Shown piece by piece: positions 1,729 to 4,055 of a stretch of 4,749 nt of DNA. The DNA lies in IMG/VR virus record IMGVR_UViG_2778261527_000011. The stretch is one strand, 5' to 3'. Both the position numbers and the translations under genes were made by a program. Within the stretch, counting starts at the first letter, position 1. The number at the start of each line of letters is the position of its first letter. Below the pieces are notes generated by a model. It was not told the DNA's origin. It was given only the letters and a program-made list of their open reading frames with translations, and searched no databases. Source of the stretch: a virus. Lineage: Duplodnaviria; Heunggongvirae; Uroviricota; Caudoviricetes.

Positions 1729-2091
1729 TTAACGACCTGCTGCGCGGAGTTTTCCGTCAGGTTCACCGGCAAGAGTCAGCAACTGTCCCTGGTCTTCCTG
1801 CAGAATAGTCAGGCGACCACCGCGATTGACATACATCGGCGTTTCGGTGGTGTCTTCTTCGGAAATTTTCCCGCGGTTAGTCGGGCGAACATATGAGAGT
1901 TTGTGTTTGATTTTCACTCGGTTCTCATCAAACGGTTCGATTTCTAGGTTGAGAGAGACCTTACCTTTGGTTTTCGTGTTCATCACACCGGAAGCGACTT
2001 CACTGAGAACTGCGCCGATTTTGGTTTCAAATACGCCGCCGTCCAGCTCCCCGATAAATGCCTGCACATCAGTACTGCGTTCGCTAGCCAT
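1729..2091 (-). CDS. Hypothetical small prophage protein (120 aa)
   Basis: Track ORF 1729..2409, trimmed to the ATG at 2089-2091 (MASERSTDVQAFIGELDGG...), which is preceded by a strong SD GAGGAG (2099-2104) with 7-nt spacing. The upstream extension to 2409 translates to low-complexity R/P/G-rich sequence from GC-rich DNA. No family recognised from sequence alone. Confidence 0.7.
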   Translation of the reverse strand: MASERSTDVQAFIGELDGGVFETKIGAVLSEVASGVMNTKTKGKVSLNLEIEPFDENRVKIKHKLSYVRPTNRGKISEEDTTETPMYVNRGGRLTILQEDQGQLLTLAGEPDGKLRAAGR

Positions 2092-2135
2092 TTTGCTGCT
2101 CCTCATCATATCGACCCTGCAAGGTCGGTTAGTTT

Positions 2136-2330
2136 CTCCACAAAACAGAGAAGAACACCTGCGGTGACTGCCGCCCGGATGGATTGGGTTATGAGCCCGT
2201 CGTCCGGTGATGCTCTTCTCTGTTTTGTAAAAAGGACGGTACCAGCCGGAAGCAAGGGTACAAGCTGGTACCGCCAGGACTACACACAGCATAAAGTTGT
2301 GGTGCCGGGTGCCTCCCGGTGCCTGGCGAA
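2136..2330. other. GC-rich non-coding spacer dense in dyad symmetries; candidate structured RNA or regulatory DNA
   Basis: Perfect 15-bp inverted repeat ACAAAACAGAGAAGA (2140-2154) / TCTTCTCTGTTTTGT (2214-2228) enclosing 59 nt that contain further small stems (GCGG/CCGC 2161-2174; CCGGA/TCCGG 2175-2207). Perfect 10-bp hairpin CGGTACCAGC (2237-2246) / GCTGGTACCG (2264-2273) with a 17-nt loop. CCGGG-tgcct-CCCGG (2305-2319), extendable to 9 bp with G-U pairs in RNA. All six-frame ORFs here overlap each other in several frames and translate to junk. Confidence 0.3.
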
Positions 2331-2500
2331 GGTTGCACACCAGGCGGGTGGGTATCCACAGAAGGTCGACTGTCAGCCTCAACCTTAACCCGCGTGCGCT
2401 GAGCCGCATTCACCACAACGCTAAGGATTCTCTCTGGTTGAAAATACTTAGCTGTTATGTGCCTGCTTTTAGCCACATCAGGCGAGGTGGACCTAGTTAT

Positions 2501-2560: not shown

Positions 2561-3076
2561 GTGATCGCTGAATTAACGGCAGCAATGACGGCTATTCGTG
2601 AAACAGCCCAGATTGCAAAACTAATGAACGAGGCAAAAACTCAAGCTGAAGTAAATGCGGCTATTGGTGAGCTGAACTCAAAGCTTGCGTCTATTCAGCG
2701 CGAATGCGTGTCTCTCTTTGAACTGGTGGGCTCTTATCAAGAAATAAATGCTTCTCTCAAAGCTAAAATTGCAGAATTCGAAAACTTTGAGGCTCAGACG
2801 GAAGGCTATATCCTTAACCAACTTGAGTCGGGTACTTTTGTATACTCGAAGGAGGTAATCGTGAACGGTGGCAGCATAACCATGCATCTTTGCCCAAAAT
2901 GTTTTGGACAAAAGATAGTATCGATACTTCAACCATTCCCGGTTAGCGAAGATGAGCTTTTTCATAAAAGCAGGTGCCTCCACTGTGAAAATAAGTTTCT
3001 GATGAATAAAAATCCGGATTACGTATCGCCTCCATCCATTGAGGAGTTGTCCAGAAAACTTAACGGCAATCTGTAG
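2561..3076 (+). CDS. Hypothetical protein with N-terminal coiled-coil and C-terminal C4 zinc ribbon (CPKC-x24-CLHC); moron-like accessory gene, function unknown
   Basis: Long plus-strand ORF (track 2297..3076) whose 5' extension is GC-rich junk. Plausible starts are GTG 2561 (AAGAG 8 nt upstream) or ATG 2585 (no clear SD). The N-terminal ~70 aa are heptad-like (AQIAKLMNEAKTQAEVNAAIGELNSKLASIQRE...LKAKIAEFENFEAQ); the C-terminus carries two CxxC pairs. Visibly more A+T-rich than the flanking spacer. Followed by an intrinsic terminator. The antisense ORF 2678..2983 has artefact-like composition. Confidence 0.6.
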   Translation: MIAELTAAMTAIRETAQIAKLMNEAKTQAEVNAAIGELNSKLASIQRECVSLFELVGSYQEINASLKAKIAEFENFEAQTEGYILNQLESGTFVYSKEVIVNGGSITMHLCPKCFGQKIVSILQPFPVSEDELFHKSRCLHCENKFLMNKNPDYVSPPSIEELSRKLNGNL

Positions 3077-3115
3077 ATTACTACTGTTGTGGATATCCAG
3101 ATTGTTAAAGAGCTA

Positions 3116-3140
3116 AGCGTCCTGTAGGGCGCTTTTTTGT
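3116..3140 (+). terminator. Rho-independent terminator for the rightward zinc-ribbon ORF
   Basis: Stem AGCGTCC (3116-3122) / GGGCGCT (3127-3133), 7 bp including one G-U pair, loop TGTA, followed by T-run 3134-3138. Begins 40 nt after the TAG at 3074-3076. The reverse strand lacks a T-tract, so it is unidirectional. Confidence 0.6.
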
Positions 3141-3207: not shown

Positions 3208-3251
3208 TGTTTCTCTTGGGTACATTATGTATCTCATAGGTACATTGTCAA
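3208..3251 (-). promoter_or_regulatory. Candidate pL-like leftward promoter with overlapping operator-like sites (OL analogue)
   Basis: Minus strand reads TTGACA (plus 3246-3251, consensus -35), then a 16-bp spacer, then CATAAT (plus 3224-3229); alternatively a 17-bp spacer with ATAATG. Operator-like imperfect palindromes TGTATC-tcata-GGTACA (3228-3244) and TGTTTC-tcttg-GGTACA (3208-3224) overlap the spacer/-10/start region. Position (just past the repressor-gene terminator) matches lambda OL/pL topology. Confidence 0.45.
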
Positions 3252-3290: not shown

Positions 3291-3965
3291 TTAGGCTTTG
3301 ATTTTGTATCTTCTTGGTTTTCCTGAGAAAATCACAGTTCCAATTATAGAGCAATTACCGTTGATCTTAATGTAAGGCTCAGGCCAGTTTGGGTTTAACG
3401 CTTTGAGATAACGCTGTGTCCCATCTTCTATCAACCTTTTGAAGGTGGTTTCACCTGTATCGTGCATCAATGCAATAACGTCGTCACCGTGGCAGGCAGG
3501 TACTTCAGGATCGACAAAAATCATGTCTCCCGGGCGGTACTCATCAATCATTGAATCACCTATCACCCGCAAGATATAAGTCATTTCCCCACAGGGTACA
3601 GGGCAGGGATACGTTTCTGCTGTGCTCAAATCAACCTCAGAATATCCAACTTCTTTCCATGCTCCGGCCTGTACCCATGATATGACAGGGACTAATGTGA
3701 TTTGTTTATTAGTGATTGAAACATCAGGTTTTTTTGTGATGTTCGTTGTCTGGTGTTCTTGATCGAGCCATCCGACAGGCAGGTCGAAACATTTTTCGAT
3801 GTGTCGTGCCATGCTGTCACCGATATTTTTAGTAGCACCATCTCCCATAAACCTGCTGGTCTGGGTTGGCTCGCGATCAATCATAGTGGCAAAGGAAGAA
3901 TTCCCTCCAACACCATCTCTCAGTTTTCTGGCGTTAGACCGCCGGATGTCATGGATTGTTTTCAT
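3291..3965 (-). CDS. Phage CI-type repressor with C-terminal LexA-like S24 autopeptidase domain (224 aa)
   Basis: Track ORF. The C-terminal domain has the S24 serine-lysine dyad context (RVIGDSMIDEY ... TTFKRL) and an Ala-Gly candidate cleavage site (SWVQAGAWK). Sits divergent from a cro-like gene with palindromic operators between them. No SD upstream of the ATG; the predicted pRM start coincides with the ATG (leaderless, as for lambda cI). Confidence 0.9.
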   Translation of the reverse strand: MKTIHDIRRSNARKLRDGVGGNSSFATMIDREPTQTSRFMGDGATKNIGDSMARHIEKCFDLPVGWLDQEHQTTNITKKPDVSITNKQITLVPVISWVQAGAWKEVGYSEVDLSTAETYPCPVPCGEMTYILRVIGDSMIDEYRPGDMIFVDPEVPACHGDDVIALMHDTGETTFKRLIEDGTQRYLKALNPNWPEPYIKINGNCSIIGTVIFSGKPRRYKIKA

Positions 3966-4055
3966 AACGAAATTAAAACCCCTGTACCGTTAAGGTACAA
4001 GTATCTTGAAGGTTCATTTCAATCATGTAATATGTACACCGGAGGTACATATTGT
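3966..4055. promoter_or_regulatory. Immunity switch region: divergent pRM-like (leftward) and pR-like (rightward) promoters with 17-bp palindromic operators, consensus TGTACC-N5-GGTACA
   Basis: Operators: perfect palindrome TGTACCGTTAAGGTACA (3983-3999); TGTACAccggaGGTACA (4033-4049, 11/12); weaker AGTATCttgaaGGTTCA (4000-4016). pR-like: -35 TTGAAG (4006-4011), 16-bp spacer, -10 TAATAT (4028-4033), then SD GGAGG (4041-4045) and the cro ATG at 4056. pRM-like on the minus strand: -35 TTGTAC (plus 3995-4000), 17-bp spacer, -10 TTTAAT (plus 3972-3977), predicted start at or near the repressor ATG (3965). Confidence 0.55.

Follow-up and report, generated by a model that had tools for sequence, protein, structure and literature searches.

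The GC-rich island in a 4,749-nucleotide stretch of Caudoviricetes DNA (hereafter the window) makes up the untranslated leader of the early operon that PL drives leftward in a lambdoid prophage of the SfV/ST64B/mEp460 type. The island transcript is a minus-strand RNA composed of two independent modules: module A, which is sRNA-like and carries a terminator, and module B, a three-way junction. The two modules recombine independently among relatives. Module B is a conserved 89-nt leader element that is apparently undescribed; no account of it was found in the literature searched, which covered the sequence itself, yfdP, and initiator-tRNA mimics or decoys in phages. One of its hairpins replicates the anticodon arm of initiator tRNA. 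We propose, with confidence somewhat short of even, that module B acts in cis from the leader, offering an anticodon arm like that of initiator tRNA to the machinery of translation initiation, with an RNase III-sized stem to hold the arm.

The element stands at the entry to the early-left operon, to which the genes for excision and integration belong, in lambdoid phages that do without an N protein; how these phages control their early genes is poorly understood. In existing annotation it appears as nothing at all or as a frameshifted pseudogene. Even on the most ordinary reading it is a strongly covarying RNA family, new and fit for Rfam, whose entry there would put thousands of mis-annotations right. 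With a range from enterobacterial phages to an Acidobacteriaceae MAG, a leader RNA modelled on the best-conserved part of the initiator tRNA also offers a concrete, testable way to ask how phages adjust or take over translation initiation, or escape tRNA-directed toxins.

Extent and composition of the leader

An earlier note on this DNA had described a single hairpin-dense island at positions 2136-2330. Its view of the island as structured non-coding RNA stands, but the single island is in fact two adjacent modules, and the interval was too short: the element spans 2449 to about 2092. The sharp change in composition is real, with a GC content of 0.62-0.66 between 2251 and 2400 versus 0.33-0.45 in the flanks. 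All of the hairpins reported earlier are present where they were placed and go far beyond chance. Further stem-loops lie at 2305-2319 (CCGGG-TGCCT-CCCGG), 2322-2344 (CCTGGCG...CACCAGG) and 2112-2127. The entire 381-nt leader folds with a z-score of -7.2. Comparative alignment of related prophages, which had been suggested as a check, was positive for both modules: compensatory changes keep the pairings, as expected of a structured RNA in the leftward transcript.

On the minus strand, the one strong promoter found ahead of the island is a PL-like promoter at 3224..3251, with a TTGACA -35 element, a 16-nt spacer and a CATAAT -10 element (11 of 12 consensus matches). It is overlapped by GGTACAT operator repeats. 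The first gene 3' of the leader is yfdP (120 aa, PF27127 YfdP family; within 1729..2104, minus strand), which has a Shine-Dalgarno sequence, GAGGAG, at 2104 to 2099 and an AUG at 2091 to 2089.

An Rfam 15 search of the whole window at E <= 1 returned STnc100 alone. The match lies over module A, where the resemblance is below threshold, and there is none over 2140-2228, so this second suggested check was positive for one part of the island and negative for the other. ARAGORN found no tRNA or tmRNA genes in the window.

Module A and its terminator

Module A extends from about 2449 to 2229 on the minus strand and was delineated from Rfam model RF02076 and a consensus fold. The match scores 42.4 bits (E 5.8e-7) over model positions 1-206 of 206, short of the gathering threshold of 47 bits. 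Equivalent sites in SfV, ST64B, 118970_sal3 and phiES15 give further sub-threshold matches of 35-41 bits. The consensus fold among homologues contains 52 pairs, 9 of them with compensatory change, and retains both the junction and the terminator. Judged by sequence, module A belongs, as a divergent member below the Rfam threshold, to the prophage small RNAs of the STnc100/PasD class.

On the minus strand, module A begins with a 5' hairpin (2452 to 2420), followed by a multi-helix junction closed by GUUGUGGUG (2419 to 2411) paired with CACCACAAC (2304 to 2296). The junction holds two inner hairpins, at 2344 to 2322 and 2319 to 2305, and leads into a conserved single-stranded linker (2295 to 2276). 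An intrinsic terminator at 2229..2275 corresponds to the 3' terminator of the STnc100 model. Its stem pairs CGGUACCAGC (2273 to 2264) with GCUGGUACCG (2246 to 2237) across a 17-nt loop, and its tail is UCC followed by five U residues (2233 to 2229). This is the perfect 10-bp hairpin recognised earlier, read on the other strand as CGGTACCAGC (2237-2246) and GCTGGTACCG (2264-2273). Our terminator scan missed it because the scan limited loops to 8 nt. Relatives have other GC-rich terminator stems at the same position, for example GUCGGCGUCC... and GGCGGCAUC..., each followed by T5-T7.

The likeness to STnc100 comprises the UGGUG/CACCA closing helix, the CCGGGAGGCACCCGG hairpin and the 3' intrinsic terminator, and both the family and module A are prophage-borne. 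Every PL-leader homologue nevertheless scores below threshold (35-42 bits against 47), whereas a canonical STnc100 copy scores 153.8 bits. That canonical copy sits after stx2B in the late region (PMC12370729) and has no long hairpin 3' of it; the resemblance is confined to module A, and module B is no part of STnc100. STnc100 copies are transcribed in EHEC EDL933, one of them confirmed by Northern blot (PMC5331693). HnrS and the Pas sRNAs were also considered and rejected, as they lie at different loci.

Module A probably arises where the PL transcript terminates, in the manner of lambda PreS (LPR1), an Hfq-type sRNA from the PL operon that ends at the internal terminator tL2a (bioRxiv 10.1101/2024.10.31.621285). 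The two would share the logic and position of an sRNA released from the early-left operon by an internal terminator. They differ in that PreS has no sequence relation to module A, lies between ral and ea10 rather than in the leader, and has no element like module B on its 3' side.

Structure and distribution of module B

Module B occupies 2228 to 2140 on the minus strand and was defined by its fold, by 55 distinct variants and by a covariance model (R1). The outer stem, P1, joins 2228-2209 to 2159-2140 in 20 contiguous base pairs that include one G.U and one U.G pair. It encloses P2 (2207-2201 with 2181-2175) and P3 (2174-2171 with 2164-2161, loop 2170-2165). The perfect 15-bp inverted repeat of the earlier note (2140-2154 and 2214-2228) is thus part of P1, with two hairpins inside it, and its suspicion that such a dyad is unlikely to arise by chance was well founded. 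A 97-nt minus-strand RNA folds at -49.3 kcal/mol compared with -23.3 +/- 3.6 for 200 dinucleotide shuffles (z = -7.3), none of which is as good. The plus strand folds nearly as well (-45.6 kcal/mol, z = -6.5), and folding alone therefore leaves the strand unchosen.

The pairing is preserved across the 55 variants. Altogether 93.2% of cells are paired, versus 41-53% with the partner slid, and double changes affect 10 pairs and 94 cells, a level reached by none of 500 shuffles. A U.G pair occurs in 48 of the 55, and A-U to G.U switches are also seen. We assigned module B to the minus strand because these would be A.C mismatches on the plus strand, and because model R1 gives the minus strand 105 bits and the plus strand 41.

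The first nucleotide of module B directly follows the U-run of the module A terminator, and module B is therefore transcribed only by polymerases that read through. The outer stem abuts a terminator U-run in most lineages; in lineage L087 the element comes directly after a promoter-like region. Equivalents of P1 are 18-26 bp long in most lineages, with a central mismatch in 31 of the 55 variants. In Serratia and Gibbsiella the outer stem encloses a wholly different interior, without the tRNA-like hairpin, and two further interior types, also unlike that of module B, occur within a long outer stem. The stem and the hairpin may therefore serve separate functions. A MAFFT alignment of the outer-stem arms across interior types lost register and was excluded from the counts.

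Directly 3' of P1 is a conserved GGAGA (2135..2139, minus strand; GUGGAGAAAC), which is retained in the E. coli, Salmonella, Citrobacter, Serratia and Gibbsiella versions even when the interior differs. A small leader hairpin, CGACC-UUGCAG-GGUCG, follows at 2112..2127 on the same strand. Its stems covary, with GGCGG/CCGCC and GCGCC/GGCGU versions in relatives, and its loop is conserved as (U/G)(U/G)GCAG. The UUGCAG loop recurs in P3 of some variants. P1 is separated from the AUG of yfdP by 48 nt here, and from the start codon by about 37 to more than 100 nt in relatives.

The most distinctive feature of module B is at the tip of P2. Positions 2186..2199 of the minus strand are identical over 14 nt (CGGGCUCAUAACCC) to E. 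coli tRNAfMet (metZ positions 29-42), and none of 300 shuffles of the window reaches 14. C28, three G-C pairs and the complete anticodon loop all fall within the identity, in matching stem-loop register, and it reads as C-GGG (2198-2196), the loop CUCAUAA (2195-2189) and CCC (2188-2186). An asymmetric internal loop, also conserved, lies beneath these G-C pairs; its 5' strand is AC (2200-2199) and its 3' strand AAUC (2185-2182). The resulting 33-nt hairpin module consists of a helix, AC, GGG-CUCAUAA-CCC, AAUC and the return strand of the helix. The helix covaries at six of its seven pairs across 37 versions.

A census of 179 copies found CAU retained in 178, with C32 and A38 also retained; within the 7-nt loop, variation falls at positions 33 and 37 alone. 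Position 33 is C in 22 of the 179, and position 37 may be U or C. To our knowledge U33 is universal among bacterial tRNAs, and these variants are therefore not as strict tRNA mimicry predicts. The hairpin also differs from the initiator tRNAs (metZ/W/V, metY) in having no acceptor, D or T arms, consistent with the ARAGORN result, and in having the internal loop where the tRNA continues as a 5-bp stem.

The element is present in 2,486 of 5,426 complete E. coli genomes (46%), as 3,318 copies, and also in SfV, SfII, SfIV, ST64B, mEp460 and Stx2- and cdt-converting phages. Stx2c- and Stx2-converting phages and phage cdtI share the block at 2093-2276 with 95-96% identity. Each phage has one copy: a search of the whole SfV genome with R1 gave a single match, with no second copy in the rightward operon. 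In K-12, R1 has no match upstream of the yfdP of CPS-53. The first genes behind the element encode YfdP, RdgC-like, YfdR-like and other proteins. In other phages the hairpin module comes straight after a terminator and ahead of holin/endolysin cassettes, and in an Acidobacteriaceae MAG, at what is probably a prophage region, it lies 13 nt before a Shine-Dalgarno sequence. The outer stem is just 5-12 bp in both of these settings. In all scanned copies but 12, an ORF with its own Shine-Dalgarno sequence follows on the same strand at a distance of 50-330 nt; several of the 12 lie at contig ends, and the environmental copies L377, L378 and L380 lack a clear gene behind them. The pattern used to scan genome contigs specified 16 bases, for which about 280 chance matches are expected. 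Because it was this loose, the raw scan is mostly noise, and matches were filtered by the model and by flank pairing.

Proposed function and alternative explanations

In the model that we favour, module B would exert cis-acting post-transcriptional control over the first cistron behind the terminator. The initiator-like arm would be offered to an initiation component that normally reads tRNAfMet, the likeliest partner being the P site of the 30S subunit, where the arm would pair with the AUG start codon. The rate of initiation-complex formation would then be set either by competition with fMet-tRNA or by pre-positioning of the subunit. The long outer stem would form a closed, RNase III-sized 5' structure on the read-through mRNA and would part that mRNA from the sRNA. 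It is by the GGG/CCC pairs together with CAU that initiator tRNA is accepted at the 30S P site and by IF3. The leader position of the element is independent of the identity of the downstream gene, which counts in favour of the model. An identical 21-nt core recurs within unrelated flanking helices, in contigs whose GC content varies from 0.40 to 0.61, and we therefore infer a host target that is common to distant bacteria.

The closest precedent in principle is the thrS type of operator, in which an mRNA-leader hairpin copies the anticodon arm of one tRNA and the factor that reads this tRNA binds the mRNA. The hairpin described here is likewise near-identical to the anticodon stem-loop of a single tRNA, and in most copies it lies in a 5' leader near the ribosome-binding site. 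It differs in copying the initiator, in lying ahead of unrelated phage genes rather than a synthetase gene, and in the mobility of the element between operons.

Several observations count against the initiation model. The internal loop that replaces the tRNA stem and the variants at C33 and position 37 depart from the tRNA. The distance to the start codon is variable, and the model has no role for the conserved GGAGA and UGCAG hairpin. The Serratia and Gibbsiella relatives do without the tRNA-like hairpin, and the match of module A falls short of the Rfam threshold. Codon/anticodon covariation was not seen, as the single variant with a CAC loop still precedes an ATG gene. A search from -400 to +300 for a partner RNA complementary to the CAU loop found no consistent site beyond the start codon itself.

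A wider reading, possible but doubtful in our estimation, is that the 33-nt module is an unrecognised cross-phylum phage RNA device that impersonates the initiator-tRNA anticodon arm, acting either as an occupant of the ribosomal P site on phage start codons or as a decoy for enzymes that attack tRNAfMet, VapC-type toxins among them. As a P-site occupant it would be a bacterial counterpart of the tRNA-mimicking domain of the dicistrovirus IRES. If this were true, phages would manipulate translation initiation by an RNA mimic instead of a protein.

An unlikely but serious alternative to the initiation model is that module B acts in processing or stability only. Its outer stem would be an RNase III site and/or a 5' protective hairpin that separates the sRNA from the early-left mRNA, and the interior would be lineage-specific cargo with no translational role, maybe released as a stable small RNA. 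RNase III processing stems are found in the lambda N leader and in T7 early mRNAs (the R sites). P1 resembles these in its length of about 20 bp, in the irregularity at its centre and in its place, with an RNA upstream and the first early cistron beyond, and at 20 bp it has the length associated with RNase III (about two turns, at least 20 bp of dsRNA). The 18-26-bp stem in most lineages, the interchangeable interiors of the Serratia/Gibbsiella and two further types, and the start of the stem at the first nucleotide past the terminator U-run all suit this explanation, as does the mid-stem mismatch, which recalls RNase III sites cleaved on a single strand. The lambda and T7 stems, however, enclose no conserved hairpin, and cleavage of P1 is hypothetical; RNase III cleavage is not predictable from sequence. 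A processing role also leaves unexplained why the 21-nt hairpin core is invariant amid changing helices, and why the core occurs on outer stems of 5-12 bp before lysis genes and in the Acidobacteriaceae MAG.

Alternatively, the arm might act in trans as a decoy, an explanation that we hold to be decidedly unlikely. Made in quantity from PL or a late promoter, it would titrate or divert a host factor that acts on tRNAfMet, such as a VapC/MvpT PIN toxin, and so work as an RNA that counters defences or toxins. In Shigella and Salmonella, PIN toxins of the VapC/MvpT type cleave the anticodon stem-loop of tRNAfMet, and Winther and Gerdes reportedly placed the VapC cut at A38-C39 in 2011. Such toxins are carried by Shigella, Salmonella, E. 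coli and Klebsiella hosts, and early-left regions of lambdoid phages are typical counter-defence sites. The replica contains A38-C39, this stretch is unchanged in the core of the window, and cross-phylum identity of the core suits a target that reads a universally conserved tRNA. We know of no evidence, however, that VapBC restricts these phages. A decoy has no need of a constant 5'-leader place near a ribosome-binding site, and there is a single copy per phage. tRNA-targeting VapCs, of which tRNAfMet-cleaving examples exist in Salmonella and Shigella, cut within the anticodon or 3' of it, before the stem, and recognise both sequence and structure (PMC7180214). The C33 and position-37 variants also weigh against a nuclease target.

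It is very improbable that module B is a put-like RNA, in which the junction would bind the transcribing RNA polymerase and confer resistance to pauses and terminators, as HK022 putL does, in place of the absent N. An N-like gene is indeed missing from the interval between PL and yfdP, both here and in ST64B, mEp460 and Stx2a_1447; the two adjacent hairpins have invariant unpaired bases, the L087 element directly follows its promoter-like region, and an invariant core would suit an invariant host enzyme. The put sites are structured RNAs that resemble module B in size (about 70-90 nt), in having two hairpins and conserved unpaired bases, and in their place in the early leader of a lambdoid phage without N (PMC9378689). 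HK022, however, has putL plus putR, whereas module B is present once and is missing from the rightward operon of SfV. Module B has no sequence similarity to putL, and R1 finds no match in the HK022 immunity region (L132). The put sites lie before the terminators, but the junction is downstream of the only strong terminator, and the early-left operon has no strong intrinsic terminators past it; the earlier suggestion of an anti-termination structure is accordingly unsupported for this terminator. The same hairpin module also lies directly after a terminator and ahead of lysis cassettes, where, by analogy with lambdoid late operons, a Q-type antiterminator would already provide read-through. A lambda-type nut site was rejected, with no boxA/boxB within 2092-2450 and no N-like ORF. 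A boxA/Nus connection was rejected as well: the boxA-like GCTCTTTAACAA, 900 nt upstream, is confined to 22 of 131 loci with the same inserted gene, and tracks that gene and not the element.

That the island is a degenerate coding sequence, a decayed tRNA gene or an attachment-site relic is improbable in the extreme. RefSeq automated annotation calls a frameshifted hypothetical protein pseudogene over the island, yfdP could be extended in frame to an ATG at 2409, and the island has its 14 nt in common with tRNAfMet. The overlapping ORFs are just this arginine-rich upstream extension of yfdP and short antisense frames, and the earlier verdict of no credible ORF is upheld. Homologous copies of module B measure 89, 90, 91, 92, 97, 108, 110, 113 and 114 nt, so that no frame persists across these lengths; the variants differ in length by 1, 2 or 3 nt, and substitutions are compensatory in helices without codon periodicity. 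ARAGORN is negative for a tRNA, and a relic would not hold a 21-nt core invariant amid flank turnover across phyla.

The remaining alternative, raised by the earlier note, is barely credible: that the GTAC-containing hairpin, with one GGTACA and two GGTACC within 2237-2273, is a distal operator through which the phage repressor forms a loop. The GGTACC motifs are the two arms of the terminator stem, which homologues replace with unrelated stems, and mEp460 keeps the hairpin despite TTGCGC-type operators and a repressor with an unrelated DNA-binding part (similarity only 15/39 identities, in the S24 domain); the 95-96% identity in the Stx2c- and Stx2-converting phages and cdtI also counts against an operator, their repressors being outside the comparison. 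GGTACA does occur 8 times in the window against 1.2 expected (0 of 200 shuffles), with seven of the eight copies in the OL/OR operators or the cI gene and one in the loop of the hairpin.

Two structured RNAs ahead of yfdP

The window comes from a lambdoid prophage (SfV / SfIV / ST64B / mEp460 type) and forms its left arm. On the minus strand it carries the integrase (1-1164), a yfdQ remnant (DUF2303, 1196-1663), yfdP (1729-2091) and an S24/LexA-type repressor (3291-3965); genes resembling cro and cII lie on the plus strand. A minus-strand PL-like promoter (3251-3224; -35 TTGACA, -10 CATAAT, 11 of 12 consensus positions) overlaps GGTACAT operator repeats and was the only strong promoter found on the minus strand upstream of the GC-rich island. 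Between yfdP and an inserted gene (2561-3076) lies a non-coding stretch in which an earlier note had picked out several structures. All are present: a perfect 15-bp inverted repeat (2140-2154 / 2214-2228), a perfect 10-bp hairpin (2237-2246 / 2264-2273), further stem-loops (2305-2319 and 2322-2344) and a GC content of up to 0.62-0.66. We distinguish two minus-strand modules here. Module A (2449->2229) is an STnc100-like RNA with its terminator, and module B (2228->2140) is an 89-nt three-way junction that starts at the first nucleotide past the terminator U-run.

The Rfam scan proposed in that note gave a single match in the window, to the full STnc100 model at 42.4 bits (threshold 47, E 5.8e-7). 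The same model scores 35-41 bits on the homologous leaders of SfV, ST64B, 118970_sal3 and phiES15, and 154 bits on the canonical copy after stx2B. EHEC transcribes STnc100 copies, one of them confirmed by Northern blot (PMC5331693), and lambda PreS, which arises at a terminator inside the early-left operon (bioRxiv 10.1101/2024.10.31.621285), offers a precedent for an sRNA that ends as module A would. In a consensus fold built from five diverged versions, GUUGUGGUG and CACCACAAC close a multi-helix junction; the other three parts are inner hairpins and a single-stranded linker (UGCUGUGUGUAGUC...), both conserved, and the terminator. Nine of the 52 pairs in this fold show compensatory changes. 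The predicted terminator is the GGTACC hairpin (2237-2273), followed by UCC and U5, and other phages have unrelated GC-rich stems and T5-T7 at this position.

The same hairpin had been suggested to be a distal operator. It is kept in mEp460 despite the TTGCGC-type operators of that phage, whose repressor matches that of the window only within the protease domain (15/39 identities). Stx2c- and Stx2-converting phages and phage cdtI also carry block 2093-2276, at 95-96% identity, the repressor comparison being that with mEp460 alone. We conclude that the hairpin is a terminator and not an operator. Besides the copies in OL and OR, two more GGTACA motifs lie within the repressor gene (3595-3600 and 3670-3675).

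The RNAs ahead of the terminator vary between phages, and all close with ...CCACCACAAC (window 2296-2419). In one variant a canonical tRNA T-arm (GTGGGTTCGAATCCCAC) occupies this position, and the STnc100-like junction looks like a cloverleaf whose anticodon arm is expanded. Such likenesses suggest that these sRNAs derive from tRNA genes.

A junction with an initiator tRNA-like hairpin

The outer stem of module B, P1, has 20 bp and includes the 15-bp dyad. P2 comprises a 7-bp helix, an asymmetric internal loop (AC 5', AAUC 3') and then GGG-CUCAUAA-CCC, and P3 is a short hairpin whose length varies, with the loop UCCUAAC in many versions that carry the tRNA-like hairpin. Within P2, CGGGCUCAUAACCC (2199-2186) matches E. 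coli metZ exactly at positions 29-42; the match takes in three G-C pairs and the complete anticodon loop, and the stem-loop register is the same. Three G-C pairs of the anticodon stem mark initiator tRNA. None of 300 window shuffles reached 14 nt in common with metZ, and ARAGORN found no tRNA in the window. Among 179 copies the loop reads CUCAUAA (147), CCCAUAA (17), CUCAUUA (9), CCCAUCA (4), CUCAUCA (1) or CCCACCA (1); positions 32, 34-36 (CAU) and 38 are therefore kept and variation falls only at 33 and 37, the one CCCACCA copy departing from CAU.

An invariant GGAGA lies 3' of the long stem. Between the junction and the ribosome-binding site is a small minus-strand hairpin (2127-2112; loop UUGCAG in the window) with covarying stems and a conserved (U/G)(U/G)GCAG loop. 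UUGCAG recurs in P3 of some variants (L103, L085 and L109), and the small hairpin is absent from Serratia and Gibbsiella versions that lack the tRNA-like hairpin. These loops could form a loop-loop contact, since UGCA is self-complementary, or a shared protein site. Each phage has one copy of the element, which in one lineage (L087) directly follows a promoter-like region, with neither sRNA nor terminator.

For the minus-strand RNA 2232-2136 the folding energy is -49.3 kcal/mol (shuffles -23.3 +/- 3.6; z = -7.3), and the whole leader gives z = -7.2. The plus strand folds nearly equally well, so the choice of strand required comparison with relatives. Scanning viral contigs with the element's core gave 120 loci with 55 distinct full-length versions (89-114 nt), all of which form the same three-way junction. 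Standard pairs occupy 93.2% of cells in the 55-version alignment, against 41-53% with partners slid, and 10 pairs change on both sides (94 cells); no shuffle of 500 reached these pairing and double-change values. The earlier reading as structured RNA is supported by pairing kept in relatives of both modules. Pair 19/98 is U.G in 48 of the 55 versions, and pairs 1, 3 and 16 alternate between A-U (or G-C) and G.U. We read module B as minus-strand RNA because these would be A.C mismatches on the plus strand; its covariance model reaches 105 bits on the former strand and 41 on the latter. RefSeq places a 'frameshifted hypothetical protein' at the island, although length variants that differ by one to three nucleotides exclude a conserved reading frame.

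Distribution and separable parts of the element

A 97-nt query matched 2,486 of 5,426 complete E. coli genomes at 3,318 places, annotated among the matches listed as nothing or 'hypothetical protein', never as RNA. True model matches in other genomes include Kosakonia, Enterobacter, Citrobacter, Buttiauxella, Mixta, Leclercia and Raoultella. Rfam 15 holds no family for module B, and full-text literature outside subscription journals, searched also with the element's own sequence, yielded no description. One full-scoring copy (90 bits) lies in an assembly labelled Chryseobacterium sp. 18061 (L183), which is probably contaminated or mislabelled, because every other strong match is from Enterobacterales.

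The long stem and the tRNA-like hairpin are separable. The model found no match in YfdP-carrying prophages of Serratia and Gibbsiella, where the layout is that of the window (sRNA-like RNA, terminator, U-run, long stem, GGAGA) and the stem starts with ACACA and ends with UGUGU around unrelated interiors. A pattern scan for this frame gave 104 loci with at least four interior types, the stem having 18-26 bp in every type. At least three types other than the tRNA-like one occur (L256, L259, L260, L263-L340), and types B and C have a common motif, ACAGUAUAA / AUAGUCUAA.

Conversely, the hairpin also occurs with outer stems of 5-12 bp. It stands just past a terminator upstream of holin/endolysin cassettes in a Raoultella genome and in viral and metagenome contigs, and several environmental contigs with a GC content of 0.51-0.61 have it too. 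In an Acidobacteriaceae MAG and peat-bog metagenomes it lies 13 nt before a Shine-Dalgarno sequence and adjoins a glucosaminidase-like gene (a possible endolysin) and a DNA adenine methylase-like gene, both from motifs read by eye, in what is probably a prophage region. Across 37 distinct hairpin versions the flanking helix is 88% paired, with six of seven pairs changing on both sides, and the hairpin's 21-nt core is fixed, an invariance that in scan hits is by construction because the scans were anchored on the core. The metagenome pattern fixed all 21 nt; position 37 of the loop and position 44 of the internal loop were unconstrained in earlier patterns. Every metagenome match has complementary flanks, which chance matches of a looser pattern lack.

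In enterobacterial phages the gene after the element variously encodes YfdP, a member of either of two RdgC-like families, a YfdR-like phosphatase or another product, and the element would be a leader module compatible with any downstream start site. We propose a conserved host partner because the element follows a terminator and its core is the same in distant hosts. The 30S P site and IF3 accept initiator tRNA by exactly GGG/CCC and CAU, and MetRS does not need the G-C pairs. For this reason we rank first, tentatively, control of initiation in cis: the hairpin would act on the adjacent start codon, and the long stem would be an RNase III-sized boundary or a 5' cap for read-through mRNA. This proposal leaves unexplained the C33 variants, the invariant GGAGA and the conserved (U/G)(U/G)GCAG loop. 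Next in the order we infer, a role in processing or stability only is rather unlikely. VapC-type toxins also tell initiator from elongator tRNAMet (PMC7180214); a decoy acting in trans is more doubtful still. A put-like polymerase modifier is very improbable, given a single copy placed after a terminator, no strong terminators downstream, and a hairpin found also before lysis cassettes.

The surrounding early-left region

Among 66 representative loci, an S24-type repressor is encoded on the same strand, about 1.6 kb upstream, in 63, a YfdR-like gene downstream in 61, and a divergent operon with a YmfL/CII-like gene in 56; no N-like gene is consistently present in the related phages compared. 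Compared with an intact relative (L001), the window lacks about 1.9 kb at ~1381-1382, comprising yfdT, yfdR, the gene for a phage protein and the 3' portion of yfdQ. The ORF left at 1196-1663 is a 155-aa chimera, and the prophage is partly decayed.

The inserted plus-strand gene (2561-3076, 171 aa) encodes a product with a weak coiled-coil match only and two CxxC pairs near the C-terminus, and has a strong terminator of its own at 3115-3134. It opposes PL, so PL transcripts must cross it antisense. The gene is flanked by the two arms of an inverted repeat (26 nt, 85% complementary; 2524-2549 / 3078-3103), which could pair in the PL transcript, looping out a 528-nt antisense stretch, or may instead mark the two ends of a mobile cassette. 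Copies of TCCCCAACAACAA also lie at 2499-2513 and 2531-2547. GCUCUUUAACAA (3103-3114, minus), which PL transcripts would reach after about 100 nt, fits the rrn boxA consensus UGCUCUUUAACAA and overlaps the inserted gene's terminator; it occurs in only 22 of 131 related loci, all with the same insert.

In lambda, cI mRNA is leaderless from PRM. Upstream of the repressor ATG (3963-4010, minus), a -35 TTGTAC, a 17-nt spacer and a -10 TTTAAT 6 nt from the A of the ATG, all read by eye, suggest that here too a PRM-like promoter gives leaderless cI mRNA. IsrK and C4 antisense RNA matches above threshold occur in the rightward operons of ST64B and Stx2a_1447 (L003 5232-5308; L363 7895-8083), adjoining antirepressor genes, and these phages also rely on a P1-type RNA immunity module.
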